Counted from the first letter of the stretch, positions 11,368-31,400 are shown. The stretch: 32,000 bases of DNA from Candidatus Saccharimonadota bacterium (GCF_025273655.1 NZ_CP045921.1:810001-842000); one strand, 5' to 3'. Notes: a model not told the origin generated them from the sequence alone. Numbers and translations are program-made.

Positions 11368-11442
11368 GGCCTCATCGTCTAACGGTTAGGACACCAGGTT
11401 TTCATCCTGGCAATCGGAGTTCGATTCTCCGTGAGGTCACCA
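11368..11442 (+). tRNA. tRNA-Glu (anticodon UUC), CCA encoded
   Basis: The 75-nt cloverleaf has acceptor GGCCTCA/TGAGGTC, anticodon stem CCAGG/CCTGG with loop TTTTCAT (anticodon TTC), T arm CGGAG-TTCGATT-CTCCG, and discriminator A plus CCA. Confidence 0.9.
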
Positions 11443-11578: not shown

Positions 11579-12451
11579 TCACGTCCCTTTCTCTCCTAAA
11601 AACTCTCCTACCACTCGCAAAAACTTCTCCGGCTCTTCCAGATTCGCGCTATGTGAACTATGTTCAAACAACTCCCAGCGAATATCCGGTATGCGCCTCA
11701 CTATTTCCTGCATCTGGCGTGGCGTAGCTTCATCATATCTACCAGACACGAGCAGCGTCGGTTGTGAGATTTGCGACAAACGATCAAGCACCGACCAATC
11801 TTTGAGGTTACCTGTCGCATGCGCCTCACTTGGGCCCCACATAGTGTGATATACCTGCGCACCCATACCGGCGATTGCATCGAGCACATCTTGGTCTTTG
11901 GGTACACGCAGCACGAAATGATCGTCGAACAGATCTGACAATCGAGTGTATTCCTCGCCCTCTGTCTCGCCGCGCCGCTCAAGTTCGCGCATGCGCACAC
12001 CTTGTCCGTCTGGCAACTCATCTTTCAACCTATCCGCTTCGGCGACCCAGAGATGTGTATCGACAAGGGGTGAATGCGCCACGAGCTTGTGTACATACTG
12101 TGGGTATTTGAGCGCATACTCAAATAACAACGAACCACCCCACGAGCCACCAATGAGGTTGACTACTTCGTAACCAAGGTGTTGCCGTAATGCCTCAAGC
12201 TCCTCGACAAAAAACTCTACTGTCCACAGCGACGGGTCATCCGGCCGATCTGATTTACCGCAGCCGAGCTGATCGTACAGCACCACCGGATACCCACGCT
12301 CCGCCAACGCGATGTGCGTGCGTAGCGCATTGTGTGGAAACCCCGGCCCACCGTGCAACACGATAAGCGGCGTGCCGGGCTGCTCGGCACCGTGCACTTG
12401 ATACCATGTACTGTGTCCATTTCTCGTCAAATAGTTTTCTTCCGTCGTCAT
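11579..12451 (-). CDS. Alpha/beta hydrolase, proline iminopeptidase family
   Basis: From ATG 12451 the frame reads MTTEENYLTRNGHSTWYQVHG...LIVLHGGPGFPH (HGGPG motif), YDQLGCGKS, and the nucleophile elbow GGSWGG. The 90 upstream codons of the track ORF are Arg/Pro-rich junk and overlap the PadR promoter and gene. Confidence 0.8.
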   Translation of the reverse strand: MTTEENYLTRNGHSTWYQVHGAEQPGTPLIVLHGGPGFPHNALRTHIALAERGYPVVLYDQLGCGKSDRPDDPSLWTVEFFVEELEALRQHLGYEVVNLIGGSWGGSLLFEYALKYPQYVHKLVAHSPLVDTHLWVAEADRLKDELPDGQGVRMRELERRGETEGEEYTRLSDLFDDHFVLRVPKDQDVLDAIAGMGAQVYHTMWGPSEAHATGNLKDWSVLDRLSQISQPTLLVSGRYDEATPRQMQEIVRRIPDIRWELFEHSSHSANLEEPEKFLRVVGEFLGEKGT

Positions 12452-12490
12452 GTCACCAGTATAGCCTGGCGCTGATTTTCGTAAAATAGC

Positions 12491-12520
12491 TTGACATAAC
12501 GATATATCGTTAATTATACT
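12491..12520 (+). promoter_or_regulatory. Promoter of the padR-ABC-MMPL operon (TTGACA-18 nt-TATACT)
   Basis: TTGACA is at 12491-12496 and TATACT at 12515-12520. The RBS AAAGGAG is at 12552-12558 and the ATG at 12567. Confidence 0.5.
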
Positions 12521-12544
12521 AAGAATAGTTAGCGATATATCGTT
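12498..12544. promoter_or_regulatory. Two copies of a palindromic operator (A[A/G]CGATATATCGTT), putative PadR binding sites
   Basis: AACGATATATCGTT at 12498-12511 is a perfect 14-bp palindrome inside the -35/-10 spacer. AGCGATATATCGTT at 12531-12544 lies just downstream of -10. The centre-to-centre distance is 33 bp. Confidence 0.5.
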
Positions 12545-12566
12545 ATCGCAGAAAGGAGCATACAGT

Positions 12567-13145
12567 ATGTTTGCACAAGAATTTGAACACGCACATGCGT
12601 TTGGTCGCGGCCGAGGCGGTTTTGGCGGACCAGATTTCGAGGAGATGCGCGAAAACCTACGTGGGTTTCGCGCTGGTCGCGGCATGATAGAGCCCGCCAT
12701 CCTCGGCGCGCTCACAACCAAGCCTATGCACGGCTACGAAATCATCTCCTATTTGGAGGAGAAATCTCAGGGCGTATGGCGCCCTAGCGCTGGCTCAGTC
12801 TACCCCACCCTACAGCTACTCGAAGAAAAAGATTTGGTAACGTACACCGAAGAAAACGGCAAAAAAATTTACCAGCTCTCAACCGACGGTGAAGCAGAAG
12901 CCGCAAATAGCCAGAAACAGTTCGAGGCAATTTTCGAACGATTTGCCAGTGCCGACCAAGAAGAAGGACGCCGTATGAATTTCCGTCACGGGTATCAGCG
13001 ACAGTTTCACCGTCAAGCAGGTGATATCATGAAGACGATGCGTCAGATTTTTCGAAAAGGCAGCGCCCAGCAAAAAGAAGCCATGGATGCAGCTGTCAAT
13101 GAATTCAAAGTAAGGCTCGAAGCGATCGAGAGAGGAGAAATATAA
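12567..13145 (+). CDS. PadR family transcriptional regulator
   Basis: The winged-helix signature is ILGALTTKPMHGYEIISYLEEKSQGVWRPSAGSVYPTLQLLEEKDLV. It has a C-terminal coiled extension. Its stop overlaps the next gene's start (TAATG). Confidence 0.9.
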   Translation: MFAQEFEHAHAFGRGRGGFGGPDFEEMRENLRGFRAGRGMIEPAILGALTTKPMHGYEIISYLEEKSQGVWRPSAGSVYPTLQLLEEKDLVTYTEENGKKIYQLSTDGEAEAANSQKQFEAIFERFASADQEEGRRMNFRHGYQRQFHRQAGDIMKTMRQIFRKGSAQQKEAMDAAVNEFKVRLEAIERGEI

Positions 13146-14110
13146 TGGCAACATCTACGCCCGCCATCGAAGTCCATGGGCTCGAAAAGCGTTTCGGCGA
13201 CAACAAGGCCGTCGACGGTATCGACCTTGTCGTACCAAGTGGCATGATCTATGGAGTCTTGGGGCCAAACGGCGCCGGCAAAACCACCACCATCAACATG
13301 CTTGCCACACTCATGCGCCCAGATGGAGGCAGCGCCAAAGTCTTCGGCCACGACGTGGTACACGAAGCACAGGTCGTACGCCAGCTCATCGGCGTCACCG
13401 GCCAATATGCGTCGGTTGACGAGAAACTCTCGGCTATTGAAAACCTGGTAATCTTCGGCCGTCTACTCGGTTTGAGCAGCAGCGAGGCCAAAGCGAAAGC
13501 GGCTGAGTTACTGGAAGAATTTGGACTCAGTGATGCCGCAAAGCGCCCACTGAAGAACTTTAGTGGCGGCATGCGTCGTCGCCTCGACCTTGCCGCCAGC
13601 TTGATCGCCCAACCACCCCTTATCTTTCTCGATGAGCCAACAACTGGTCTCGACCCACGCACGCGCAACCAAATGTGGGATACGATTCGCAAGCTGGTCA
13701 AAAGCGGCTCGACAATCCTACTCACTACCCAGTATCTCGAAGAGGCCGACCAACTGGCAGACCGGATAGCCGTGATTGACCACGGACACGTCGTAGCCGA
13801 AGGCACACCAAACGAACTCAAGAAATCGATTGGCAACGCCACACTCGTGCTAGGTATCAAGCACAAAAAGTACATGGCAGAAGCAGCCAAGATCGTCGAA
13901 AAAACACTGAAAGTTAAAACTCAGCAGCCCGAACAAACAGTCATCACAGCGCCGATGAAAGACGCTGATACAGTTACGGACTTACTAATCAAACTCCGCA
14001 CAGCTGATATCGAAATCGATGAGCTCAGCGTCCAAAAACCAACCCTCGACGAAGTCTTCTTCGCCATCACCGGCAAACCGGCCGAGAAAAAGGAGAACGA
14101 AAATGAGTAG
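13145..14110 (+). CDS. ABC transporter ATP-binding protein (DrrA/ABC-2 exporter type)
   Basis: Motifs are Walker A GPNGAGKTT, Q-loop, signature FSGGMRRRL, Walker B LIFLDEPTTGLD and the H-loop. The C-terminal regulatory extension is typical of DrrA-like ATPases. Confidence 0.9.
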   Translation: MATSTPAIEVHGLEKRFGDNKAVDGIDLVVPSGMIYGVLGPNGAGKTTTINMLATLMRPDGGSAKVFGHDVVHEAQVVRQLIGVTGQYASVDEKLSAIENLVIFGRLLGLSSSEAKAKAAELLEEFGLSDAAKRPLKNFSGGMRRRLDLAASLIAQPPLIFLDEPTTGLDPRTRNQMWDTIRKLVKSGSTILLTTQYLEEADQLADRIAVIDHGHVVAEGTPNELKKSIGNATLVLGIKHKKYMAEAAKIVEKTLKVKTQQPEQTVITAPMKDADTVTDLLIKLRTADIEIDELSVQKPTLDEVFFAITGKPAEKKENENE

Positions 14111-14924
14111 TACTACCGCCACAATCACACCGGGCGAAAAACGAACGCTCAAAAATCACGTCAGCTTAGGCCAAACAGTTAGCCAATCGCTCACCATGGC
14201 GCATCGTGGCCTCATAAAGGTTCGTCGCAACCCCGAACAGCTGTTCGATGTAGTATTCCAGCCCATCATCTTTACTGTCATGTTTACTTACCTTTTCGGT
14301 GGTGCTATCGCCGGTAGCGTCGCGAGCTATTTGCCTATCATTATCCCTGGTATCCTGGCACAGACCATCATCACCGCCAGTGTAGTAACAGGCACACAGC
14401 TACGAGAGGATATGGATAAGGGCGTGTTTGACCGCTTCAAAAGCCTGCCGATTGCTCGTATCGCGCCACTATCTGGTGCACTGATCGCCGACACAGTACG
14501 CTACCTCATTGCCACAGTGCTCACATTCACCATGGGCTATCTTATGGGACTGCGTCCAGACGGTGGTTTCGGTAGCGTCGTCGTTGCAAGCCTGCTTGTC
14601 ATCGCTTTCGCCTGGTGCCTTAGTTGGATCTTCGCGTTTTTCGGTGTCATTGCCCGCTCAGCATCGAGCGTGCAGGGCATTTCCATGCTCATCCTCTTCC
14701 CGCTCACCTTCTTATCGAATGCGTTTGTACCGGTCAATACCATGCCAGGCTGGCTGCAGTGGTTTGTAAATATCAATCCAGTTTCGCACCTCATCACCGC
14801 GATTCGAGACCTCATCAATCACGGCACAATAGGCGGAGATTTCTGGCTCAGTGTCATTGGTGCACTCGTCATTTTGGCTATCTTCGCACCGCTGACAGTT
14901 CGCGCCTATATGCATAAAGCCTAG
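14103..14924 (+). CDS. ABC-2 type transporter permease
   Basis: The start ATG at 14103 overlaps the ATPase stop (ATGAGTAG). The product is a six-helix hydrophobic protein of 273 aa (RNPEQLFDVVFQPIIFTVMF...). The upstream 28 codons of the track ORF lie inside the ATPase gene. Confidence 0.85.
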   Translation: MSSTTATITPGEKRTLKNHVSLGQTVSQSLTMAHRGLIKVRRNPEQLFDVVFQPIIFTVMFTYLFGGAIAGSVASYLPIIIPGILAQTIITASVVTGTQLREDMDKGVFDRFKSLPIARIAPLSGALIADTVRYLIATVLTFTMGYLMGLRPDGGFGSVVVASLLVIAFAWCLSWIFAFFGVIARSASSVQGISMLILFPLTFLSNAFVPVNTMPGWLQWFVNINPVSHLITAIRDLINHGTIGGDFWLSVIGALVILAIFAPLTVRAYMHKA

Positions 14925-14991
14925 CGATTGACGCATGCACGGCACTCCCGCATAATAAGAGATAAATATACTACCGCAAACGAGGGACCAT

Positions 14992-17391
14992 ATGGGGAAT
15001 TTTCTGCAAAAACTAGGCGCGCGCGCGTTTGAACTAAAATGGGTGATTGTGCTTGTATGGATCGTCATACTCGGCATACTCGGTGCCACGGCTGCGCATT
15101 ACTTCAAATCACCGACCAGTGCCATCAAGATTCCTGGCACCGAGGCACAGAAAACATTTGATCGCTACGGGGAGCTCTTCCCAGACGAAGGTAAAGGCTC
15201 CGGCCGTATCGTGTTCTATACTGCCGACGGCCAGGTACGAGACCACGCTACAGAGATCAACCAGCTCCTTGCACGGATTGACGATGTCGACAATGTTTCG
15301 GCCGTGATTAGCCCCTTTACCAACCCCAAAGGTATCTCGGACGATGGCAAAACCGCCTATGCCATACTTCAGCTCGACGGCACTATCGGTTCAATCGACA
15401 AAGCCACAACAGATAAAGTCGAATCACTTGTAGGTGACGCACGCATTCAAGGTGTAGAAATTGACAGAGGTGGAGATTTGGTACGCAAAGTGCCAGACGA
15501 AATCCTCGGCGTGGGCGAAATCGCCGGCGTACTGATCGCCCTCATGGTGCTCCTCATCACCCTCGGCTCACTTATAGCTGCCGGTATGCCAATTATCACT
15601 GCGCTCGTCGCAGTGGGTGCTAGTGCAGCCGGACTCTTCTCACTCAGTCAAGTCATCGAAGTCAACTCCACCACTCCGGCACTCGCCATCATGCTTGGCT
15701 TGGCTGTTGGTATCGATTACTCCCTCTTCATTATCAATCGCTACCGCAGTCTGCTGCTTGAAGGCTATGATTACAAGACGGCCGCAGCCCGTGCGATCGG
15801 TACCGCTGGTAGCGCCGTACTTTTCGCCGCTTCTACTGTCGTAATTGCGCTCGCCTCGCTCACTGTCGTGCAAATTCCATTCATGACCACCATGGGACTC
15901 ACGGCAGCTGCTACCGTAGCAGCTGCCGCTATCATTGCAATCACACTGGTACCAGCCATGCTAGGTATCGCGGGCAAGCATGTATTTCGCGGTAAAACAC
16001 GCCAAGCAATTGCCGATGCCCAGAAACGCGGTATCAAACACAATGAACATGCGCCACACCGCTCGGGCTGGTGGAAATGGGGCAACACAATCACCAAATA
16101 CCCGTATGCTATCATCGCTGTCGCCGTACTTATTATCGCTGTCATCGCCTATCCAGTAAAAGACATGCGCCTCGGCCTCCCTACTGACGAATTTGCCGCC
16201 CAAGGCTCATCTGAACGTATCGCCTACGATCGACTCACCGATGGCTTCGGTGCCGGATTCAACGGCCCCCTCCTCATCTTGGTAGAGAACATGCCCCAGA
16301 CTTCACAAGCTGACAAAGATACGGTACGAAATGCCGCAATGGCCGAATTTAATAAACAAGTAGCCGCCCAGACAGAGTCTGCACAAACGGCTATCCAGGC
16401 GCAAATGGCGCAGATTACTACTCCAGAGCAAGCCGTTGCCCTGCAGCAGCAAATCGCAGCCCAACAAGCAGCCGGTGAGCAAAAGAAGCAAGAAGCACTA
16501 GTCGCTATAGACAGGCAAGTCGAACAATACGCACCGCTCGTGCAGTACAATCAGATCGCCCAACGTATCGCAAAACAAGACAACGTTGACCAAGCGCTAC
16601 CTGTCACTACAGCAAATAACGGCACCGTAGGTGTGATCCAGGTGGTACCGAAATCCGGCCCAAGTGACGCCGCTACTGGTGATCTCGTCAACAAACTGCG
16701 TGAATCTGACACCCAAGACAACGTGCTCGACAACACCACTGCCACACTCGGTGTCACCGGCACTACTGCTATGCAAATTGATATCAACAAGAAACTGTCT
16801 GCTGCACTGCCCGTCTACCTAGCTGTTGTCGTCGGTCTGTCGCTTATCTTGCTCGTGATTGCGTTTCGCTCCATCTTAGTACCAATCAAGGCAACTCTCG
16901 GGTTCCTTCTCTCGGTGGCGGCGATGTTCGGCGCTCTTGTAGCTGTATTCCAATGGGGGTGGTTTGGTATCGCCGAGGCACCAGGACCTATCGTCACCAT
17001 GCTGCCTATCATCGGTATTGGTATCTTGTTTGGCCTCGCTATGGACTATGAATTTTTCCTCGTCTCTGGCATGCACGAAGCGCACCAGCACACCGGCGAC
17101 GCACACAAAGCCGTCCTGCGTGGCTTCTACCAGGGGGCTAAAGTCGTGGTGGCTGCAGCAGCTATCATGGTATCCGTCTTCGCTGGCTTCATCTCCAACC
17201 ACGACACCACCGTACAGGCACTTGGTTTCGCGCTCACCGTTGGCATCTTTGTCGATGCGTTTCTGGTGCGCATGACTATCGTACCGGCCGTCATGCAGCT
17301 CCTTGGTAGTAGCGCCTGGTGGCTACCAAAGTGGCTCGACGGTATCTTGCCGCATATCGCAATCGAGGGCGAGTCAGACAACAAAGCATAA
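14992..17391 (+). CDS. MMPL family (RND superfamily) membrane transporter
   Basis: The 799-aa ORF has two 6-TM bundles, each preceded by a large extracytoplasmic loop. The MMPL signature is LGLAVGIDYSLFIINRY, with GLAMDYEFFLVSGMHE in the second half. A possible own promoter is TTGACG(14928)-17-CATAAT(14951). Confidence 0.9.
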   Translation: MGNFLQKLGARAFELKWVIVLVWIVILGILGATAAHYFKSPTSAIKIPGTEAQKTFDRYGELFPDEGKGSGRIVFYTADGQVRDHATEINQLLARIDDVDNVSAVISPFTNPKGISDDGKTAYAILQLDGTIGSIDKATTDKVESLVGDARIQGVEIDRGGDLVRKVPDEILGVGEIAGVLIALMVLLITLGSLIAAGMPIITALVAVGASAAGLFSLSQVIEVNSTTPALAIMLGLAVGIDYSLFIINRYRSLLLEGYDYKTAAARAIGTAGSAVLFAASTVVIALASLTVVQIPFMTTMGLTAAATVAAAAIIAITLVPAMLGIAGKHVFRGKTRQAIADAQKRGIKHNEHAPHRSGWWKWGNTITKYPYAIIAVAVLIIAVIAYPVKDMRLGLPTDEFAAQGSSERIAYDRLTDGFGAGFNGPLLILVENMPQTSQADKDTVRNAAMAEFNKQVAAQTESAQTAIQAQMAQITTPEQAVALQQQIAAQQAAGEQKKQEALVAIDRQVEQYAPLVQYNQIAQRIAKQDNVDQALPVTTANNGTVGVIQVVPKSGPSDAATGDLVNKLRESDTQDNVLDNTTATLGVTGTTAMQIDINKKLSAALPVYLAVVVGLSLILLVIAFRSILVPIKATLGFLLSVAAMFGALVAVFQWGWFGIAEAPGPIVTMLPIIGIGILFGLAMDYEFFLVSGMHEAHQHTGDAHKAVLRGFYQGAKVVVAAAAIMVSVFAGFISNHDTTVQALGFALTVGIFVDAFLVRMTIVPAVMQLLGSSAWWLPKWLDGILPHIAIEGESDNKA

Positions 17392-17425
17392 GCATTGCGT
17401 AAAAAGCTTGTTTAGTATATAGGTA

Positions 17426-17454
17426 TTGACTTTTTATCCTTTTTGTGGTAATTT
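17426..17454 (+). promoter_or_regulatory. Candidate promoter TTGACT-17 nt-TGgTAATTT reading into the GC-rich island
   Basis: TTGACT is at 17426-17431, followed by a spacer ending in TGg, then TAATTT at 17449-17454. It lies in native-looking AT-rich DNA just left of the left inverted repeat. Confidence 0.35.
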
Positions 17455-17493
17455 GAATATATACGCCGTTGTGTGAGGACATACGGGGGCGAT

Positions 17494-17535
17494 ATGTTCG
17501 TTAACAAGTCAGATTATTACAGTACATGTATATCT
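17494..17535. repeat. Left inverted-repeat arm
   Basis: The arm is ATGTTCGttaaCAAGTCAGATTATTACagTACATgtatatCT. The core CAAGTCAGATTATTAC is at 17505-17520. Confidence 0.6.
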
Positions 17536-17685
17536 GGCTGTGACTGTGGCGCTCTGGGCATCGCCATACTTGTTTGTTATGTCTAGAGCGCTGCAGTTGC
17601 AGCGCCGCTTTGCGTTGAAATTACTTCTTACGTAAAGCGAAGAGATACTCGTTACTATTTACGTTGTAAACTTACGCGCTTTCCC

Positions 17686-17745
17686 GTCGGGTACAACATC
17701 TTACCTACCAATCAGTTGATTTGCCGGTAGCATGTTGTACCCGAC
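17686..17745 (+). other. 60-nt composite stem-loop (14-bp perfect outer stem)
   Basis: GTCGGGTACAACAT at 17686-17699 pairs with ATGTTGTACCCGAC at 17732-17745. Inner helices are CTACC/GGTAG and AATCA/TGATT. The structure sits where GC content rises. Confidence 0.45.
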
Positions 17746-17863
17746 CCAGGGGTCACAACCACTTGCACAACACAGTGCAGGTGTAGATCCCCTAGGAAGG
17801 GGAAGTTATGTTCACGATCAGTATCGGTGGCATCGCCACCACCAACCGAGAGGAGGTGGCGGC

Positions 17864-19588
17864 ATGATGCTCGCCGTCATCATCGTGGCCACGCTGCTCG
17901 CAGCGTGGTTCGCGTGGCACCAGCTATGGTCGAAAGGCCTTGCGTGTGCGATCGTCGTATTCGGTATTGCGCTCGCCTGGCTGCTCGTCTTTCCGCCCAA
18001 GCTCGGTCCGCTGCAGACACCATTGTACGGTGTCGGCATCGTACTGATGCTCATTTCCATGGCAACTGTGGTCTACCTCTACTTCAAACGAGGTGGCCAT
18101 AGCGCGGATCAAAACCGCGTCGCCAAGGTGAACGGCACAGTCGCCGGAGTCATGGTGACCATCATGGTCGTCGGGGTGGCAATGGCAGTCGGTAATGCAA
18201 CCATGCCGGTCCCCAGCTCCTACAAGGGCGAGGATGTCGTCAAGGCGGCTGTCGTGGGGACGCTCGATTCCGGGCAGACCACGACCGCCCCCAAGGTGAC
18301 AACCGGTGATGCCAACTGCCGCGCATTCGACGCGCCGAAAGGTAGCAACAATTTCGGGCCAACCCCGAATATTGACCTTTCGGACGTCAACGCGGTATGG
18401 CAGCACTACCGAGAGAATGTGGCGAGCGACCCCTGCGTCGCTGCGTCCTGGATCTTGGTACGACGCGACGGGCTGACCGCCAACAAGGAAGAGATCAAGC
18501 AACTCGCTACCGCCTACCGGTCTGACCGGCAGCGGTGGCAGCGGGATCTCGACGGGTACTTCGCCGCAACATGCGGAGTATCGTTGGCGGATCTGGGTGA
18601 CATGCCGTACTACTCGTTCGGCATGATCCCGGGTGCAACTCGTACGGATATCGCCACTCCGACACAGCAATCAGAGCTGCAGAAGATGGGCTACACCTTG
18701 TTCTTCGCCAAGTGCGGCAAGGACAAGAATCCGATCGGGTTTTACGAAGTGGGTAACCGGCCGTTGTGCAACGACCAGCCATCCGCAGCAGCCCCGTTCA
18801 AGGAGATGTCACCAACCGCTCCCCCGCAGCCGATCCGGCCGCCGGGACAGGGTGGTGGGCCACCTCCATCGACACCGCCGACGACGACGCCTCCCACGAC
18901 GACGCCGCCGACAACCACACCGCCGACGACGACGCCTCCCACGACGACGCCGCCGACAACCACACCGCCGACGACGACGCCTCCCACGACGACGCCGCCG
19001 ACAACCACAACATGCCCTCCGGGGCACCCGGACTGCAAGTCGCAGTCCGGTGGCATCGATCCGCCGACAAGTCGGACCCCCGCTTCGCCGCCCCCAAGCA
19101 GCGAGCTGGAGACTTCATTGCCTCCAGAGCCGGATCCGATTGACCCCACCGTCACCTCCGACGCACCCGCGCCGGAGACAACAGTTCCGACCGTACCGAG
19201 TGCGGGTGGACAAACCGGTGGGCAGACCGCCATCCCCGACCCCGGCGCGTTGCCGGGCGGAGGAGATAGCGGTTCGAGCGAAGGTGCAGCCGGCGATGGA
19301 GGCACTGGGTCCGGTAGCGGAACTGGTGGCGATACCGCAGGTTCTGGTGATACTGCCGGCAACCAGCCTGCACACACCAGTGCAGTAGTCACAGGTGAAG
19401 CTGAAGACGCTGCGCCTACCAGCATGGCAATCGAGAACAGCGCCTATTCATCTCCGCTCAGCACAGGTCCCGGCCTCTTGGCCGTGATCGTCTTTGTGCT
19501 GTTTGGCATGCTGATTGGTGGTGCTCTCGTGCTACGCTTCGTGCGACGTCCGGTGGGCGGTGCATACAAGCCTCAGCATCTGGGGTGA
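17864..19588 (+). CDS. Hypothetical polytopic membrane protein with a Cys-containing domain, (PPTTT)n linker, Gly/Ser/Asp-rich region and a C-terminal TM helix
   Basis: ATG at 17864 is preceded by GAGAGGAGG (17848-17856). Four N-terminal hydrophobic helices are followed by an approximately 190-aa domain with 6 Cys. This is followed by nine PPTTT units and then a C-terminal helix (GLLAVIVFVLFGMLIGGALVL) plus RFVRRP. Codons are strongly G/C-ending. No family was recognised. Confidence 0.7.
   Translation: MMLAVIIVATLLAAWFAWHQLWSKGLACAIVVFGIALAWLLVFPPKLGPLQTPLYGVGIVLMLISMATVVYLYFKRGGHSADQNRVAKVNGTVAGVMVTIMVVGVAMAVGNATMPVPSSYKGEDVVKAAVVGTLDSGQTTTAPKVTTGDANCRAFDAPKGSNNFGPTPNIDLSDVNAVWQHYRENVASDPCVAASWILVRRDGLTANKEEIKQLATAYRSDRQRWQRDLDGYFAATCGVSLADLGDMPYYSFGMIPGATRTDIATPTQQSELQKMGYTLFFAKCGKDKNPIGFYEVGNRPLCNDQPSAAAPFKEMSPTAPPQPIRPPGQGGGPPPSTPPTTTPPTTTPPTTTPPTTTPPTTTPPTTTPPTTTPPTTTPPTTTTCPPGHPDCKSQSGGIDPPTSRTPASPPPSSELETSLPPEPDPIDPTVTSDAPAPETTVPTVPSAGGQTGGQTAIPDPGALPGGGDSGSSEGAAGDGGTGSGSGTGGDTAGSGDTAGNQPAHTSAVVTGEAEDAAPTSMAIENSAYSSPLSTGPGLLAVIVFVLFGMLIGGALVLRFVRRPVGGAYKPQHLG
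18872..19006 (+). repeat. Three perfect tandem copies of a 45-bp unit
   Basis: ACACCGCCGACGACGACGCCTCCCACGACGACGCCGCCGACAACC occupies 18872-18916, 18917-18961 and 18962-19006 with no mismatch. It is in frame and encodes the PPTTT repeats. Confidence 0.95.
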
Positions 19589-19619
19589 TCGACACAACTA
19601 AATAGATAGACGGGTATCT

Positions 19620-19650
19620 CCGGGGAGCTAGCCACAAGTTGGCTCCCCGG
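19620..19650 (+). terminator. GC-rich hairpin after the island gene (no U-tract)
   Basis: CCGGGGAGC (19620-19628) pairs with GCTCCCCGG (19642-19650), 32 nt after the stop. The lack of a T-run makes terminator function uncertain. Confidence 0.4.
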
Positions 19651-19660
19651 GATATTCCCT

Positions 19661-19699
19661 AGATGTATCGTAATAATCTGACTTGCACGATCCGAACAT
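19661..19699. repeat. Right inverted-repeat arm
   Basis: The arm is AGATGTATCGTAATAATCTGACTTGcacgatcCGAACAT. Its reverse complement shares blocks of 7, 16 and about 7 nt with the left arm. The core is at 19670-19685. Confidence 0.6.
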
Positions 19700-19744
19700 T
19701 AACAAATCGGTATAGCGCTTGTGTTAAAAAAGTTGTATAAAATA

Positions 19745-19772
19745 TTTACTTTTATAATTTTTGTTGTATAAT
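19745..19772 (+). promoter_or_regulatory. Promoter of the LPXTG protein gene (TTTACT-16 nt-TATAAT)
   Basis: TTTACT is at 19745-19750 and TATAAT at 19767-19772, in a very AT-rich spacer. A 5'UTR hairpin ATGAGCA/TGCTCAT (19792-19812) abuts the RBS AAAGGAG (19813-19819). Confidence 0.45.
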
Positions 19773-19825
19773 GACAATTAAACTATAACAAATGAGCATG
19801 TGGAGTGCTCATAAAGGAGTGTGTA

Positions 19826-21595
19826 ATGAAAAAACTATTCGCTGCGCTGCGAAGCGCACCAAAGCGAGTTGCAACACTGGCTATCGTAGCTGCGGCTATC
19901 GCCGTGCCAGCTAGCCTCTACGCATGGGGTCCAGATCGTCCTACATACACTATGCAGGATCCAGCAGATCACGTGACGTTCAACTCGATCACAGACAATG
20001 CAAAATACGGTGACGAGCGTAACTTCGTCCAAATCCGTGAAGCCGGTACCGGTACTTACGGTGAGAACATAAATATCCAGCCAGGCAAAGAATACGAGGT
20101 ATTCGTCTACTACCACAACAATGCGGCGACACGCCTCAACAGTGCAGAAAATGGCTACAAAGGTATCGCGCAAAACGCAAAAATGCGCATTCAGATGCCA
20201 GCAAGTGTTGCTGCCGGTCAAAAAGCACGTGTTACCGGCGTACTCAGTGCTGACAACGCTCAGCCACAGCAAGTATGGGACGAAGCCTATGGCACCTCTA
20301 CTTCAAATGACACAATGTACCTGCGCTACACACAGGGTTCAGCCACTATCCATAACCTCGGTACTACAAACGGCGCAACAATGCCCGACAGCCTGTTCGG
20401 CGAAGGTGCACCACTTGGCTACAACAGCCTCGATGGCAAGCTGCCTGGTTGTAACGAGTATGCTGGCTATGTCACATTCCGTTTCAAGGCCGTACAGCCA
20501 AACTTCGAAGTTAGCAAGCAAGTATCAAAAGCTGGCGCAAATAGCTACAGCGAAAACGTCACTGTCAATCCTGGCGACAGCGTCAACTACAAAATCCAGT
20601 ACAAAAACACTGGTACTGTTAAGCAAGACAATGTCGTAATCAACGACGTATTGCCAAAAGGCGTTACCTATGTCCCTGGCACTACCTACTACGCGACCGG
20701 CAATAGCAATGGTCAGTGGGTCAAATCAACAAGTGACAACGTGACGAAGGGTGGTATCAATATCGGTACCTTCTCGCCTGGCGCAAATGCCTATGTAGCA
20801 TTCACTGCTAAGGTAGCATCAAACGATGAACTCGAAAAATGTGGTACCAACGTACTCACTAACAAGGCACAGGCAATCACAGAGAACGGCACCAAAGAAG
20901 ACACGGCAGACGTGACCACTAACAAAGAGTGTAAGCCACAGCCAGAGTACAAATGTACCGCGCTCGCTGTCAGCACACTGAGCGACACCAAGTTCAAGTT
21001 TGAAACTGGCTACAGTGTCAGTGGTGGCACGTTCAAGAGTGTCAGTTACACTGTCCGCAACGAAGCTGGTGCAACCGTAGCAACTGTCGCCGGCACACCA
21101 AATGCAGCAGAGTACACTCAGACCACACCAGGTAAGTACACCGTACAGGCAACAGTGACATTCACTGTCAACGGTCAGGACGTAACTGCCACCGGTGACG
21201 CATGTAAAAAAGCGTTTGAGGTACCAACCCCACCACAGCCAGGCGAGATCAAAGTCTGTGACCTCAGCACAAAGCAAATTGTCACAATCAAAGAAGATGA
21301 ATTTGACTCAAGCAAGTACTCGAAAAACCTCGAAGACTGCGCTGAAACGCAAATCATCGTCTGCGACATGACTACCAAAACTATCGTGACGATCAAAGAA
21401 AACGAGCTTGACTCAAACAAATACACCAAAGACACAAGCATGTGCCAGGTTACACCTGTCACACCGACAACTCCAGCGACTCCAGCTGAGCTTCCTATGA
21501 CTGGTAGCACAGACGGACCACTGACTATCGCAGGTCTTGCGACCCTTGCCCTCGTGCTTGGTTACGCAGTCACTGCCCGCCGTACACTCGGCTAA
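19826..21595 (+). CDS. LPXTG-anchored surface protein with a DUF11/'conserved repeat domain' and Cys-bracketed C-terminal repeats
   Basis: ATG at 19826 follows the AAAGGAG RBS. The signal peptide is MKKLFAALRSAPKRVATLAIVAAAIAVPASLYA. A DUF11-like segment reads VTVNPGDSVNYKIQYKNTGTVKQDNVVINDVLPKGVTYVPGT. Two 35-aa repeats fall at 21248-21457. The sorting signal is LPMTG (21491-21505) plus a hydrophobic stretch plus ARRTLG. Confidence 0.85.
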   Translation: MKKLFAALRSAPKRVATLAIVAAAIAVPASLYAWGPDRPTYTMQDPADHVTFNSITDNAKYGDERNFVQIREAGTGTYGENINIQPGKEYEVFVYYHNNAATRLNSAENGYKGIAQNAKMRIQMPASVAAGQKARVTGVLSADNAQPQQVWDEAYGTSTSNDTMYLRYTQGSATIHNLGTTNGATMPDSLFGEGAPLGYNSLDGKLPGCNEYAGYVTFRFKAVQPNFEVSKQVSKAGANSYSENVTVNPGDSVNYKIQYKNTGTVKQDNVVINDVLPKGVTYVPGTTYYATGNSNGQWVKSTSDNVTKGGINIGTFSPGANAYVAFTAKVASNDELEKCGTNVLTNKAQAITENGTKEDTADVTTNKECKPQPEYKCTALAVSTLSDTKFKFETGYSVSGGTFKSVSYTVRNEAGATVATVAGTPNAAEYTQTTPGKYTVQATVTFTVNGQDVTATGDACKKAFEVPTPPQPGEIKVCDLSTKQIVTIKEDEFDSSKYSKNLEDCAETQIIVCDMTTKTIVTIKENELDSNKYTKDTSMCQVTPVTPTTPATPAELPMTGSTDGPLTIAGLATLALVLGYAVTARRTLG

Positions 21596-27592: not shown

Positions 27593-28418
27593 GCCCCGAC
27601 AGCGACATGGCTTCACTGTACCCGAACTACTTGTTGCTATCACTATCTCGGGAATCATTCTCGTTGGGCTTATATCGCTATTCGTTGGGCTGGCCAACAA
27701 CAGTGCTGCGGTTATCAAGACATCCGACCAAATTCGTAACAACAACACCGTCATCAGCTCCATCGAAAGTGACATGCGTCTTACCAAATCCTTTCGTGCT
27801 ACAGCTTCGCTCGCCGACGGCGACTCAACAGCTTCGCCTATACAGCCTAGCGGTTGGGTATTCCGCGGTATCGACAGCAACAGCCGCATACTTATCCTAC
27901 AAACCTACGCCACCACCACCAATAGCAAGGCAGACGAACGACAGATCGTCTATAGAGACGATGGACTCGGTGGGTGCCCAGTCGGGCTCAATCCGGTCTA
28001 CAACAATATTATCTATTTCCTAAAGGATGACACACTCTACCGACGTACACTCGTAGAAGCCACGCCTCCCCCTTCTACTCAGTACTGCGGCAGCACCCCA
28101 ACAGACTCTGTTGCCACTATTTCGCAGAAGCAAACCTGTACCGACGGACAAGCAAGTGGCATGCCCAGCAATTGCCGAGAAAAAGACGTTGCTCTCGCAA
28201 AAGGCATAACTCAATTTTCTATCCAGTATTATCAAAACCCCAGTGACAGTACTACACTTAACTCTGTATACAGCATGACAGACACAGATGCCAACACCGC
28301 GCTCAGCGGCACTAGTTCACTTCGTATCGATGTCACAACCAAGGGAGAACCGACAGCAAATATTGCAGACATTGCGTCGTATCGTCGCCTCTCGAAAGGA
28401 GCACTCCGTGTATTCTAA
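27582..28418 (+). CDS. Minor pilin-like protein (PilW/GspJ-like size) with a prepilin signal
   Basis: The leader MSSRPRQRHG|FTVPELLVAITISGIILVGLISLFVG has G-1, F+1 and E+5. The protein is about 278 aa. The start is ATG 27582 (GGAG 10 nt upstream) or ATG 27573, and it overlaps the pilin 1 stop. Confidence 0.75.
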   Translation: MSSRPRQRHGFTVPELLVAITISGIILVGLISLFVGLANNSAAVIKTSDQIRNNNTVISSIESDMRLTKSFRATASLADGDSTASPIQPSGWVFRGIDSNSRILILQTYATTTNSKADERQIVYRDDGLGGCPVGLNPVYNNIIYFLKDDTLYRRTLVEATPPPSTQYCGSTPTDSVATISQKQTCTDGQASGMPSNCREKDVALAKGITQFSIQYYQNPSDSTTLNSVYSMTDTDANTALSGTSSLRIDVTTKGEPTANIADIASYRRLSKGALRVF

Positions 28419-31400
28419 TACCCGCCAACAGGGCTTCATACTGCCAGCGCTGATCGTACTCTCACTGTTACTCATGTCGATGGGGCTAGTTGCTCTTCAG
28501 TACGTTGCGTCTTCTACCAACTCAGTCCAATCAGCATTTTATAACAATATGTCTAAAGAGGTGGCCCACGCAGGCGCATCCCTCGCATACAGCTGCCTCC
28601 GTAGCAACGGTGGCGCCGCCCAGTGGACAGGTAGCAAAAAAGCCCTAACCGTAGGAAGCGACTGCGCGGGTATTACCTACGCCGGCGGAATAGACTGTGC
28701 AGCAGGCAGAGATGCCAGCATAGCTCCCGATACCAGCACCCTATCACAGGGACCAAATGGTAGCTGGAAATCCCGGTTCATCGTATGCGAGCCGACAGTG
28801 GGCACTGGAGGTATTAGCTATATCGCAAAAGGCATTGTCGAATTCTACTATGCCGGAAGTAGTACTCCCACGCGGAGCTTCACAAGCCTCACAAAAGTCA
28901 ATATTCCGTATGATCTCAGCGCCTCAACAGTCCGCAAAGCTGTCGGCAAGGCAGTCACCCAGATGGAATCTGGCGGCAACTCCAACTGCGCCATTGCCAA
29001 TCAACAGTTGTATTGCTGGGGCGTCAATAACGTAGGTCAGATGGCACAGGGTGGCTCTGACACCGCAAGCCGCTCCTCACCCACACTTATCACCACTGGT
29101 GCCTTGAGCGGTAAACGGGTCACCTACACATCGATGGGCTACACAAATGGTTGCGCCATTGCCGACGGTCGCAGTTATTGTTGGGCAATCAACCAACGCG
29201 GCCAACTTGGCAATGGCACAGCACCAGGCTTTCTATCGGATTTCGATATCGTCGCACTACTTGCTGCGACGCGCTACCAGCCGACTCAGGTCACTGGCCC
29301 ACTCGCAAACGTTAATACTACCAAAATATCTGCCAGCTGGGCCCTAGATAACAATGCCGATCGCTCCCATAGTTGCGCACTTGCAAACGGTGCAGTATAT
29401 TGCTGGGGAAGTAACTACTATGGACAGCTCGGACAGCCGAAGTACGAAGGCGCCGTAGATGTACTCTGTGCGGCAAGTGGATGGGTAGCTGGCTACATTT
29501 TATTCGTGCCGTCTTCGTGGCTCTGCCCCAAGCCAGAATATACGGGCATGAGCATTGGTGACAATCACGACTACTATTCACCATCTCCAATTCTAGGCTT
29601 CGGCTCTCGCCCCCAAGAAAGCCAGGGGCTTTTCTATGGCAAACGCGTTACAGACTTCGACACTGGTGTATTTGGTGATTGTGCAATTGCCAATGGCTCA
29701 GTATATTGCTGGGGAGAGAATACACTACAGGTTCGAGGGTCGGCAGATCCCCTCGGGGGACTCACGACACAATCGACCAATGCGCTCAAGCAGGGTGATT
29801 TATCTGGCCGTTACGCTACATCCGTCGCTGCCGCCTCTACATCGGCATGTGCGGTAGCCGATGGCCGTATGAACTGCTGGGGACGTTTGCGTGGTGATGG
29901 CGTCGATAATGTAGTCGGTAATAGCACGCCTAAGGCCGTCACTGGGCTACCGGATGGAGATAAAGTTATCGACAAAGTCAAAAGCTCTACCGAGCTCTCT
30001 GGACCAATCTGCGGCTTCGGATCTGGTGACTCTTACTGTTGGGGACTGAATCAGCCCGGTACTGCAAGTCCCCTGCATGTCAGGCCAACCATGCTTAATA
30101 CCAATGAATCAATTACAGATGGGGGCACCGGTGGTGGCGCAGCTGGTCTCTTTGGCATAGGTGGCACCCCCGGCAACAGTTGCTATGTCGCAAATGCAAC
30201 CGTTTACTGTATCGGCAATAACGAATATGGTCAGCTAGGAAACGGCACTACGGGCGGATCATCTGGTAGCTCATTTGTGAAAGCCAATACCATAGGTCTC
30301 ACCGACGGCAAAGCCGCCACCGACATCTCGTCTGGCACTGACTACAGCTGCGCAATAATCGATGGTCAGCCTTACTGTTGGGGCAACGGTAGTAGCGGCA
30401 AGCTTGGTAACGGCGACAGTCTCAATCGCACCCACCCATATGGTGTCAATGGCCTGCCCGACTCGACGTCGTCGACACAGGTTACCGCCGGCAACGCTCA
30501 TTCATGCTCAATCACAGGCGGTCACGCCTACTGCTGGGGTAGCAATGCGTCTGGGCAAGTCGGAAGTGGTGCTAATAATCCACAACTATCTGCTCGTCTC
30601 GTGACGGGTAGTGGTTTTGAAAGTATGGCAGTCACCGACATCTCAGCCGGGCGAGATCACACTTGTGCTGTCGCAAATAGCAAGGCCTATTGCTGGGGAC
30701 TTAACACTTATGGCCAACTTGGCAATAACACGACTACTGCAACAGGTACGCCTACAGCTGTCCGAGCCAACAGTGGCGATGCACTATATGGCAAACAGGT
30801 GACCAAAATCGTTGCCGGTGATCGATTCACCTGCGCGATCGCCGACGGCCAGCCTTACTGCTGGGGGGAGCGCGCTAGCGGTAAAATTGGCAATGGTGGT
30901 AGCACTAGTGGCAATACACTACTCCCCGCGGCTGTATCAAATATGACAGGCGCTTCCACCGATCTTGAAGCTGGACCAGATTATGCGTGCGCTATCGAAA
31001 GCGGCATACCGAAGTGTTGGGGCGAAAATCAGTACTACCAACTCGGTATTAATAGCACCGTTGATCAGACGACTCCCACTACCAACACCACATTACAAGG
31101 TAGCTCTAGTAGTCCAAAAAACACCACTTCCATGGCTCTTGGAACCTCTAGCGCCTGTGCAATTACCAATGGTACCACCTACTGCTGGGGCAGTCGTGCC
31201 AACGGGCGCATCGGTAACGGAGGCACCACTACTGGTAACACTGCCACTCCTACGGCAATCACGGAAGTCAACTCTACGACAGACCTAGGACCCCAAAATA
31301 CTCCGTATAAACTGTCGGCTGGCAGCTTCGGCTCTTGTGCGATAGCCAACGCCCGCATCTATTGCTGGGGTGACGGCAGTCAAGGCCAGATGGGTACCGA

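Follow-up and report, generated by a model that had tools for sequence, protein, structure and literature searches.

The window analysed here, a stretch of 32,000 nucleotides from the genome of Candidatus Mycosynbacter amalyticus (NZ_CP045921.1:810001-842000), harbors a single GC-rich open reading frame (ORF) that is bracketed by inverted repeats and followed by a gene encoding a DUF11/LPXTG protein (Table 1). As read from the translation, the 574-aa product is composed of about four N-terminal transmembrane (TM) helices, a globular domain, (PPTTT)n repeats, a P/G/S-rich region and a C-terminal TM anchor with a basic tail. An AF2 model of the globular domain (pLDDT 90.4) predicts four helices and five strands. 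No match was found to Pfam or NCBIfam families, to PDB sequences, to PDB folds or to BFVD, and no transposase or integrase is encoded inside the repeats. The RefSeq entry WP_260762933.1 of Ca. M. amalyticus, located on a 1.08-Mb contig, is 100% identical but covers only the C-terminal 328 aa.

Table 1. Features of the bracketed transcription unit and its right-hand border, in positions of the 32,000-nt window.
Feature	Position	Strand	Sequence or description	Basis
Promoter	17426-17454	+	-35 TTGACT (17426-17431), 14-nt spacer segment, extended -10 TGGTAATTT (17446-17454); inferred TSS near 17461	Read from the sequence; conserved in the ortholog alignment
5'-proximal hairpin	17465-17490	+	GCC.GUUGUGU-GAGG-ACAUACG.GGC; inferred role in protecting the 5' end	MFE fold of the leader; hairpin of different sequence at the same place in L001
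5' arm	17494-17530	+	Outer block AUGUUCG (17494-17500), UUAA, helix-1 strand CAAGUCAGAUUAUUAC (17505-17520), one A, helix-2 strand GUACAUGUA (17522-17530)	Repeat search; covariation
Structured 5' leader	17536-17863	+	Hairpins P1 (17536-17603), P1b (17606-17639), P2 (17686-17745), P3/P4 (17747-17803); GGUGGC/GCCACC hairpin (17826-17840) that may compete with the SD region GAGAGGAGGUGGCGGC (17848-17863)	MFE and consensus folds; SD sequestration is a reading of the sequence
SD	17848-17856	+	GAGAGGAGG	Read from the sequence
CDS	17864-19588	+	574 aa; globular domain of about 160 aa (roughly residues 165-325); (PPTTT)n repeats (18859-19008)	Translation; AF2 model
3' hairpin	19618-19652	+	GC-rich, without U-tract	Read from the sequence; not called as an intrinsic terminator; hairpins at an equivalent position in the related loci inspected by eye
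3' arm	19660-19699	+	Helix-2 strand UAGAUGUAU (19660-19668), helix-1 strand GUAAUAAUCUGACUUG (19670-19685), 7-nt interior loop, outer block CGAACAU (19693-19699)	Repeat search; covariation
Promoter of the downstream gene	19745-19772	+	TTTACT-16-TATAAT; right-hand limit of the unit	Promoter scan
DUF11/LPXTG gene	19805-21595		Conserved right neighbour in all readable loci	Synteny

An initial annotation of this segment, made from the sequence alone, had pointed to its deviating composition and to the bracketing repeats, and this observation was confirmed. The GC content in sliding 500-nt intervals is 0.59-0.70 from 17751 to 19500, compared to 0.46-0.60 elsewhere and a mean of 0.525 for the window. 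The CDS shows a GC of 0.630 and a GC3 of 0.700, whereas the GC3 of 23 other genes lies between 0.467 and 0.614 (mean 0.54, SD 0.034), which places the CDS at about +4.7 SD. Given the window's codon usage, a GC3 of only 0.53 is expected from the amino acid composition, and the high Pro/Thr/Gly/Ala content thus does not explain the excess. At two-fold degenerate sites, both C/(C+T) and G/(G+A) are raised, i.e. 0.71 and 0.80, as opposed to 0.51 and 0.51 in the background. The noted SD and the GC-rich 3' hairpin without a T-run were also found, while the accompanying remark that neighbouring genes are often leaderless remains an impression of that annotation only.

The repeat arms at 17505-17530 and 19660-19685 are 26 nt long and 88% complementary, with a perfect 16-mer, CAAGTCAGATTATTAC, as their core, and an outer 7-nt block (ATGTTCG with CGAACAT) pairs as well. 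Even when up to two mismatches are allowed, the 16-mer occurs exactly twice in the window, and none of 100 shuffled sequences gave two or more matches.

The interpretation offered in the initial annotation, i.e. horizontal acquisition from a high-GC actinomycetal host as a repeat-bounded, mobilisable cassette, was only partly supported. The segment is a discrete, compositionally distinct and repeat-bracketed unit whose coding cargo is exchanged at the same slot in relatives. However, acquisition from a host belonging to the Actinomycetota is not supported. An exhaustive HMMER search over 1.84 billion representative sequences returned only 31 relatives, the best non-self hit being 34% identical, and word-index searches gave merely three hits. 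Every named relative is from Saccharimonadales or Saccharibacteria, and neither an Actinomycetota homolog nor any other outgroup homolog was found.

Moreover, orthologs occupy the same syntenic slot (PK/PGK/tRNA, the gene, DUF11-LPXTG, histidine kinase) in at least five other Saccharibacteria genomes, among them those of the related loci L001, L003, L029 and L170 (L numbers designate related loci throughout). The order is MMPL, gene, DUF11, HK and, further on, FolD in L001/L002, while L003/L004 show UvrD, TIM, PGK, PK and GH5 and, further on, the gene, DUF11, HK, MT, RR, FolD and RCC1. L170 has the same order, and nine further metagenome loci carry PK, PGK or hyp429 on the left and DUF11 or HK on the right. 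There is therefore no empty site, and the locus predates the divergence of these lineages. The same arms were found in L001, L003, L029, L170 and L173. A tRNA-Glu lies 6 kb upstream of the segment in the window, but no att-like direct repeat was seen.

The GC excess likewise recurs. GC3 is 0.68 in L001 against 0.37-0.60 in its neighbours and 0.64 in L003 against 0.40-0.54, and most bracketed cassettes over 1.3 kb exceed their flanks by 0.05-0.2 in GC. In L173, the GC-rich block is the CDS and not the leader. Not every ortholog is GC3-rich, however, as the main ORF of L029 has a GC3 of 0.43. Of three outcomes that had been named beforehand as speaking against host transfer, two were thus observed, as homologs come from the same lineage in the same context and the 16-mer is a recurrent lineage-wide motif, whereas the GC3 does not fall within the genomic range.

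The arms were then compared across 34 distinct, non-redundant pairs. In the 16-bp helix 1, 99.4% of cells are paired and 7 of 16 pairs are changed on both sides; none of 500 shuffles was as good, and slid registers are only 22-44% paired. The 9-bp helix 2 also covaries, although that of the window is weak, with six Watson-Crick pairs, one G·U and one mismatch in its first eight positions. In L170, both arms carry the same four changes, which are compensatory. As evidence for pairing at the level of the sense-strand RNA, about 40 G·U or U·G cells stand against three A·C cells in helix 1, the consensus at position 4 being G·U in 27 of 34 pairs, and the counts in helix 2 are nine against one. This asymmetry rests on few independent events, i.e. 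about nine position/type combinations against three, and the sequences are phylogenetically related. The 5' arm lies 37-66 nt downstream of the same promoter element, TTGACx-N14-TGTGnTAnnnT, in 32 of 34 loci, and a long sense ORF fills nearly every cassette. In minimum free energy (MFE) folds of whole inferred transcripts, the long-range helix forms in 34 of 36 cases, with 16 of 16 pairs in the window, yet duplex energy alone is not distinctive, since other 70-nt intervals give similar RNAduplex energies.

The roughly 400-nt leader is conserved and structured as well (MFE -190.5 kcal/mol, z = -10.3), and 29 of the 61 pairs in the consensus fold of five orthologs show compensatory changes. Apart from tRNAs, no Rfam 15 family was hit at the gathering threshold in the window or in 16 related loci, nor at E <= 1 for 17380-19810. 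Leader (over 484 nt) and 3' flank are 74% and 79% identical to L001 at the nucleotide level, while the CDS shows no nucleotide similarity. The protein is only about 30% identical, compared to 63-78% for MMPL, TIM, PGK, PK and RR. In L141, L154 and L163, flanks that are 95-97% identical enclose about 1.4 kb of unrelated cargo, and cargo classes are unrelated by BLAST and by profile comparison. The recombination breakpoints lie about 45-60 nt inside the 5' arm and inside the CDS rather than at the repeat ends.

Taken together, the segment is best explained, with moderate confidence, as one transcription unit that represents this genome's copy of a conserved, hypervariable surface-protein slot of the Saccharimonadia. 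In this view, a strong promoter would start an mRNA whose 5' and 3' arms pair over 2.1 kb into an interrupted helix of about 26 bp, i.e. 16 bp, a small asymmetric loop and about 9 bp, in addition to the outer 7-bp block seen here, which would close the whole mRNA. Such a 5'UTR-3'UTR bracket on an exchangeable surface-protein gene is, to our knowledge, undescribed. The helix may define and protect the mRNA ends, either as a substrate of a double-strand-specific RNase such as RNase III, as a shield against 5' and 3' exonucleases, or both, and its conserved sequence could also allow common control of the bracketed genes. The cargo would be a lineage-restricted surface protein anchored in the membrane at both ends, whose globular part evolves very fast or is replaced outright by homologous recombination between the conserved promoter and 5'-arm region and the conserved C-terminal module and 3' flank. 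Raised GC and GC3 are a shared property of these cargo CDSs in many Saccharibacteria genomes and, in this view, not a sign of recent import from the host.

The analysis establishes the synteny, the conservation and covariation of arms and leader, the mosaic replacement in relatives and the GC pattern, while the transcription start and 3' end, the presence of both arms on one transcript, their pairing in vivo, the RNA-level function, any RNase involvement, the cause of the GC excess and a role in host interaction are inferred. That both arms are transcribed is deduced from the promoter position and the lack of a terminator between the stop codon and the 3' arm. In the main slot, no terminator follows the 3' arm either, and only 7 of 36 loci have a terminator-like site, so that the 3' end is undefined and read-through is possible. 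Furthermore, the 16-mer is far more conserved in sequence than pairing alone requires, which suggests recognition by a protein that could equally act on DNA.

Among the alternatives, the one that survives best concerns only the GC excess, which might tentatively be viewed as a by-product of frequent recombination, i.e. GC-biased gene conversion, at a locus under diversifying selection, instead of selection on the mRNA or foreign origin. The enrichment of both G- and C-ending codons, the recombinational replacement and the recurrence of the excess across unrelated cargo families are in line with this view. Yet, the excess is confined to the CDS and does not extend to the conserved leader or flanks, where the recombination breakpoints lie, and it is lacking in small bracketed cassettes and the L029 ortholog.

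It is unlikely that the repeats act at the DNA level, be it as terminal inverted repeats of a non-autonomous MIC/MITE-like cassette, as paired sites for a site-specific recombinase supplied in trans, as in pdif modules, or as ends of an invertible segment that switches the gene on and off. The sequence conservation of the 16-mer would be expected for a protein-binding site, the promoter lies outside the left arm, so that inversion would disconnect the gene, and cargo is exchanged between close relatives. All long cassettes with readable flanks are in one syntenic slot, but cassettes with other cargo also occur at a second locus between rpoC and rpsL in L077 and L083, one of them being present or absent between the two, and a serine recombinase (resolvase) lies about 4 kb from the bracket in L173 only. 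On the other hand, no inverted variant was seen, although assemblies report only the majority orientation, and the arms keep the same orientation relative to promoter and gene. The two arm types, one with a TTAA prefix and no bulge and the other with a 1-13-nt bulge, are never swapped, and the consensus G·T "mismatch" and other wobble-only differences have no DNA-level rationale. The flanks ...GGGGGCGAT and TAACAAATC... share no direct repeat that could represent a target-site duplication, and no recombinase, transposase or integrase was found among the window genes scanned against Pfam. The L077/L083 indel junction lies inside an arm at a short GCA(T) microhomology, which looks like a deletion rather than clean excision, and no bracket-like copies were found in viral contigs. 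An integron cassette is not supported either, as no integrase is present and the repeats form an inverted pair around the gene, not a single attC palindrome.

Even less likely, the arms could be operators for a DNA-binding regulator, for example of a surface-protein regulon, that binds downstream of the promoter and at the gene's 3' end and represses by looping, with complementarity as a by-product of two copies of one asymmetric site. The strong sequence conservation, the 5' arm position at about +40 to +60 relative to the promoter, the occurrence of the motif on several unrelated surface or membrane genes and the conserved neighbouring sensor kinase and response regulator would fit. However, the 16-mer is not palindromic, the orientation is always inverted, and helix 2 covaries behind a variable bulge. 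Concerted double changes, i.e. four positions in L170, the TAAATC/GATTTA arms in L077/L083 and ACC/GGT in L162, keep complementarity while altering the sequence, whereas a single regulator's site would not drift pairwise per locus. Finally, a recently acquired island from the host Gordonia amarae (PMC11880426; bioRxiv 10.64898/2026.03.03.709456) is very improbable and already largely refuted, despite the unexplained GC excess and PT-rich linkers of a style common in actinobacterial secreted proteins, by the homolog distribution and synteny described above and by GC-richness that recurs in orthologs and unrelated cargo, which amelioration after an old transfer would not preserve.

The proposed bracket most closely resembles the RNase III processing stems of bacterial 16S and 23S rRNA precursors, in which sequences immediately 5' and 3' of a long RNA pair over kilobases into a helix of 20 bp or more that closes the whole molecule. 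Helix length and interruption by an internal loop are as expected for a double-strand RNase substrate, but here the enclosed RNA would be an mRNA for a surface protein, the same 16-nt sequence is reused on different genes and across many species, and cleavage is considered by analogy only. Long-range pairing between both UTRs of one bacterial mRNA that controls stability and translation occurs in hok mRNA (fbi/tac elements of hok/sok) and in Staphylococcus aureus icaR mRNA. Those are single-gene cases with short mRNAs and no family-wide conserved sequence; in icaR, the 3' UTR pairs with the SD, while the arms described here lie about 340 nt upstream of the SD and no toxin is involved. The cyclisation sequences (5' CS/3' CS) of flavivirus genomes also close a long coding RNA into a loop and are conserved across species while covarying, but they are viral replication signals in eukaryotic hosts, and there is no evidence of RNA replication here. 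The pdif modules of Acinetobacter plasmids, flanked by Xer sites, and mobile insertion cassettes (MICs) share the bracketing of one or a few passenger genes without a transposase by inverted conserved sites, and cassettes can sit in tandem, as in L077/L083. In contrast, the arms at the present locus lie inside the inferred transcription unit with fixed polarity, differ from each other in a wobble-type manner, lack a target-site duplication and do not coincide with the replacement breakpoints, and the locus is syntenic across species; by eye, the 16-mer shows no dif-like dyad. Lastly, hypervariable surface-antigen loci such as pneumococcal capsule or pspA-type loci are replaced by homologous recombination in conserved flanks and likewise display unrelated or highly divergent alleles in near-identical backgrounds, and Saccharibacteria are naturally competent, although here the conserved handles are largely the gene's own UTRs plus a C-terminal module and the alleles also share a compositional (GC3) signature, the L029 ortholog being an exception.

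The initial annotation described a GC-rich, single-gene segment between inverted repeats, and this observation is correct. In a window averaging 0.525, sliding-window GC rises to 0.59-0.70 across a segment whose only long ORF encodes 574 aa, is preceded by GAGAGGAGG and starts with an ATG that matches the start of its orthologs. The ORF has a GC content of 0.63 and a GC3 of 0.70, whereas the 23 other genes of the window have GC3 values of 0.467-0.614. As its amino-acid content combined with the codon usage of the window predicts a GC3 of only 0.53, richness in Pro, Thr, Gly and Ala does not explain the excess. Both C- and G-ending codons are enriched, at 0.71 and 0.80 against 0.51 and 0.51. 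The inverted repeat consists of 26-nt arms (88%) with a perfect 16-mer core and an outer 7-nt block. This 16-mer occurs exactly twice in 32 kb, while none of 100 shuffles gave two matches. No Pfam or NCBIfam family, transposase or integrase was found inside the segment. The C-terminal 328 aa are 100% identical to WP_260762933.1 of Ca. Mycosynbacter amalyticus (on a 1,081,308-bp contig), i.e. the RefSeq protein comprises only the C-terminal 57% of the ORF and begins at the internal Met247. Since orthologs align from residue 1 and a strong SD precedes the upstream ATG, the annotated start seems wrong and omits about four TM helices and half of the globular domain.

Positions of features in the window and in related loci (L numbers)
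Feature	Sequence	Position	Strand
GC-rich segment	window	17751-19500	
Long ORF	window	17864-19588	
Part of the ORF preceding Met247	window	17864-18601	
Inverted-repeat arms	window	17505-17530 and 19660-19685	
Outer 7-nt blocks	window	17494-17500 and 19693-19699	
Inferred mRNA start	window	near 17461	
tRNA-Glu	window	11368-11442	
Block of five genes between tRNA-Glu and the bracketed gene	window	11579-17391	
Two DUF348-G5 proteins	window	1555-2715 and 253-1473	- and -
RCC1-repeat protein	window	28288-31494	+
Shared motifs of cargo proteins	window	residues about 400-520	
Tandem bracketed cassettes between rpoC and rpsL	L077	3352-6990	
Tandem bracketed cassettes between rpoC and rpsL	L083	426-3368	
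tRNA gene upstream of the 5' arm	L003	7978-8049	
tRNA gene upstream of the 5' arm	L006	6509-6580	
tRNA gene upstream of the 5' arm	L018	1654-1725	
tRNA gene upstream of the 5' arm	L035	3009-3080	
tRNA gene upstream of the 5' arm	L075	1572-1643	
tRNA gene upstream of the 5' arm	L084	2388-2459	
tRNA gene upstream of the 5' arm	L170	5381-5452	
Tandem 5'-type arms	L125	436 and 568	
Tandem 5'-type arms	L138	966 and 1097	
Serine recombinase	L173	12158-13876	-
tRNA overlapping the recombinase	L173	12124-12195	

Ca. M. amalyticus is a cultivated Saccharibacterium that parasitizes Gordonia amarae. The suspicion that the organism is an epibiont of Actinomycetota was therefore right, which made the proposed acquisition of the gene from the host worth a proper test, but this transfer was not borne out, so that the interpretation of the initial annotation is only partly supported. 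A HMMER search with the non-repetitive N-terminal 326 aa against 1.84 billion representatives yielded 31 relatives at E <= 0.001, with a best non-self hit of 34% identity, and every relative that carries a name is from Saccharimonadales or Saccharibacteria. Word-index searches gave only three hits, the full-length query being swamped by PT-repeat words. A profile search of a 5.8-billion-protein set with an alignment of the domain, no stretch of which was conserved enough for retrieving related loci, returned nothing, not even family members, and is thus regarded as a technical null. The supplementary file of a pilus preprint does not list this protein. The relatives sit in the same place: the related loci L001/L002 show the order MMPL, gene, DUF11/CLIPPER, HK ... 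RR, FolD, while L003/L004 harbor UvrD, hyp, TIM, PGK, PK, GH5 ... gene, DUF11, HK, MT, RR, FolD ... RCC1 and L170 harbors UvrD, hyp, TIM, PGK, gene, DUF11, HK. The locus is therefore ancestral to these genomes, and there is no empty site.

The RCC1 member of this block is in the window a 1068-aa protein with seven repeats (RCC1-like beta-propeller), which is also conserved at the end of the syntenic block in L003. In many related loci, a tRNA gene lies 0.2-1.3 kb upstream of the 5' arm, and the slot is therefore ancestrally tRNA-adjacent. In the window, by contrast, five genes intervene that encode a proline-iminopeptidase-like hydrolase, PadR, a DrrA-family ABC ATPase (TIGR01188, 373 bits, above cutoff), a DrrB-family permease, and an MMPL transporter with a partial match to the MmpL3 model. 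L003 lacks the MMPL gene and has only small ORFs between the tRNA and the cassette (1.2 kb), and in L170 the tRNA lies about 300 nt upstream of the 5' arm. This 6-kb block hence looks lineage-specific, although L001 also has the MMPL gene. These are mycobacterial-type lipid exporters in a parasite of a mycolic-acid host, and their GC content is genome-typical. A more plausible candidate for a host-related cell-wall enzyme than the bracketed gene itself is found among the two DUF348-G5 proteins, the first of which ends in an Rpf-like transglycosylase domain, i.e. the RpfB architecture typical of Actinomycetota.

The GC anomaly is a property of the locus rather than of this genome. The L001 ortholog has a GC3 of 0.68 against 0.37-0.60 in its neighbors, and the L003 ortholog 0.64 against 0.40-0.54. 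In L173, a 2-kb block of 0.64-0.68 GC in a 0.47 background coincides with the CDS and not with the leader. The same holds for the window, where the leader (0.515) and the 3' UTR (0.535) contrast with the CDS (0.63), while other secreted or repeat proteins of the window have ordinary GC3. The bracketed L173 cassette holds a homolog of the target domain in a different genomic context, about 4 kb upstream of a serine recombinase with Resolvase and Recombinase domains.

The inverted repeat likewise is a lineage-wide bracket, as the same 16-mer flanks the orthologs in L001, L003, L029 and L170. A scan of a genome collection returned mostly chance hits, as expected for 596 Gb, but at least 12 loci, M. 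amalyticus itself not among them, were Saccharibacteria, and a longer pattern retrieved 43 metagenome loci. In viral contigs, only single chance matches without the TTAA prefix and the GUGCAUG extension were detected, so that a phage origin is not supported. The arms come in two types, namely a 5' type, (T)CGTTAA-CAAGTCAGATTATTAC-A-GTGCATGTC, and a 3' type that is its complement with a bulge of 1-13 nt between the two helices. On 34 distinct arm pairs, which are phylogenetically non-independent, helix 1 is 99.4% paired and seven of 16 pairs changed on both sides, whereas 0/500 shuffles reached the observed values and slid registers were only 22-44% paired. In L170 both arms carry the same four changes, L077/L083 have TAAATC.../...GATTTA arms, and L162 has ACC/GGT. 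Helix 2 (9 bp) covaries as well. L077 and L083 are two Saccharimonas-like genomes of about 44% GC, in which the rpoC-rpsL intergenic region holds three to four tandem cassettes, each bracketed by the same arm pair, with a putative polysaccharide-deacetylase-like 418-aa protein and small membrane proteins as cargo. L077 has one extra cassette of about 690 bp where L083 keeps only a solo 3' arm. Clean excision was considered, yet the junction lies inside the arm at a short microhomology, which rather indicates a deletion.

Four observations favor a helix in the sense-strand RNA. First, departures from Watson-Crick pairing are almost all G·U or U·G, with about 40 cells against 3 A·C-type cells in helix 1 and 9 against 1 in helix 2, and the consensus at position 4 is itself G·U (27/34 pairs). 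Second, in 32/34 loci the 5' arm lies 37-66 nt downstream of a consensus TTGACx-N14-TGTGnTAnnnT promoter and is therefore predicted to be in the 5' UTR. Third, a long sense ORF follows in nearly every cassette, the two arm types are never swapped, and no inverted variant was seen. Finally, in MFE folds of whole predicted transcripts (0.5-3 kb) the end-to-end helix forms in 34/36 cases, including 16/16 pairs in the window. However, independent wobble events are few, the sequences are related, the 16-mer is more conserved than pairing needs, and duplex energy alone is not distinctive, since unrelated 70-nt windows score as well with RNAduplex. In L125 and L138, two tandem 5'-type arms share one 3' arm, and in L125 the MFE fold does not pair the first arm with the 3' arm (0/16 helix-1 pairs), which suggests alternative 5' ends or alternative closures.

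Between the 5' arm and the ATG lie about 330 nt that fold far better than shuffles (-190.5 kcal/mol, z = -10.3). In five orthologs, these nucleotides give a consensus of 61 pairs, 29 of them with compensatory changes, and no Rfam family matches even at E <= 1. Near the start codon, a GGUGGC/GCCACC hairpin could, judged from the sequence alone, compete with the SD region GGAGGUGGC.

These conserved UTRs surround a hypervariable, exchangeable cargo. Against L001, the leader is 74% identical over 484 nt and the 3' flank 79%, which matches the MMPL gene at 72%, yet the CDS has no detectable nt similarity. The protein is about 30% identical over half its length, while MMPL, TIM, PGK, PK and RR are 63-78% identical. 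All long bracketed cassettes with readable flanks lie in the same slot. Their globular domains fall into at least three BLAST-unrelated groups, none with a Pfam domain, and an hhalign comparison of the target family with the commonest other cargo family gave a probability of 0.8%, so that common ancestry of the cargo domains is not shown. Otherwise unrelated cargo proteins of loci L126-L167 and the window protein share a Cys-containing end of the globular domain (RCGN, ACANPQ or CDxQP), followed by P/T-rich linkers and conserved low-complexity C-terminal motifs (KDPSQDP..GNAP.GGGPN..GPG, or ..G(T)G..DPD(G/A)) that may be an anchoring or modification signal. L141, L154 and L163 have flanks that are 95-97% identical at nt level, but about 1.4 kb shows no similarity, from 45-60 nt after the start of the 5' arm to the junction between the globular domain and the conserved P-rich C-terminal module. 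The L141 cargo is instead 40% identical to cargo in distant backgrounds (L128, L155 and L161). This is recombinational replacement of the cargo between conserved handles.

Taken together, an ancestral syntenic locus rather than a host-derived island can be stated with high confidence, whereas an RNA-level bracket is favored with moderate confidence. In this model, one mRNA carries a 5' hairpin and its two UTR arms pair and close the molecule, which would define or protect its ends in the manner of the RNase III processing stems of rRNA or the hok 5'-3' fold-back. The arm pairing and the structured leader may jointly control expression of a putative doubly membrane-anchored surface protein, and the cargo is diversified by recombination. 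While synteny, covariation, the composition of the CDS and cargo replacement rest directly on the sequence comparisons, transcription of both arms, the specific nuclease, the effect on stability and the reason for the high GC3 are inferred, the candidates for the latter being selection for structured or AU-poor long-lived mRNA and GC-biased conversion. A more far-reaching reading is possible, but remains doubtful. Conceivably, Saccharimonadia carry an undescribed expression-cassette system, in which a conserved promoter and both arms form an mRNA-closing helix of about 26 bp around surface and membrane-protein genes, while the same ends serve as homology handles for swapping unrelated, GC-rich cargo genes in and out by recombination in naturally competent epibionts. 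The element would then couple RNA-level control (end definition and stability, possibly co-regulation by one factor that recognizes the invariant 16-mer) with rapid exchange of candidate host-recognition proteins, and the GC3 excess would be an adaptation of these long-lived closed mRNAs.

Among the alternatives, DNA-level sites such as TIRs, Xer-like modules or invertons are unlikely, and looping operators are even less likely. Transfer from the host is very improbable and is rejected on homolog taxonomy and synteny.

Saccharibacteria and other CPR bacteria are obligate epibionts, whose mechanisms of host recognition and adaptation are largely unknown, and almost nothing is known about their RNA biology. 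The locus combines a lineage-wide structured RNA element absent from Rfam, inferred from sequence, with conserved UTRs around one of the fastest-evolving genes in the neighborhood and direct evidence that the encoded, predicted surface-exposed domain is exchanged between near-identical genomes. Such a profile would be expected of a host-interaction or immune-evasion determinant. As Ca. M. amalyticus is cultivable with G. amarae, the predictions on transcript ends, 5'-3' contact, RNase cleavage, surface location and a role in host range are directly testable. The locus is also a caution for island-finding, because a sharp GC3 anomaly bounded by inverted repeats is here an ancestral, syntenic feature and not a recent transfer.

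Searches of Rfam at gathering and E-value thresholds gave no hits, and literature searches for a described Saccharibacteria repeat or UTR element found nothing. The principle of long-range end pairing is known from rRNA precursors, hok, icaR and flaviviruses, and cassette-like gene modules are known from pdif modules and MICs. What differs here, and has no counterpart in Rfam or the searchable literature, is a sequence-conserved helix that is predicted to close whole mRNAs, is reused across genes and species, and is tied to an exchangeable GC-rich surface-protein slot.
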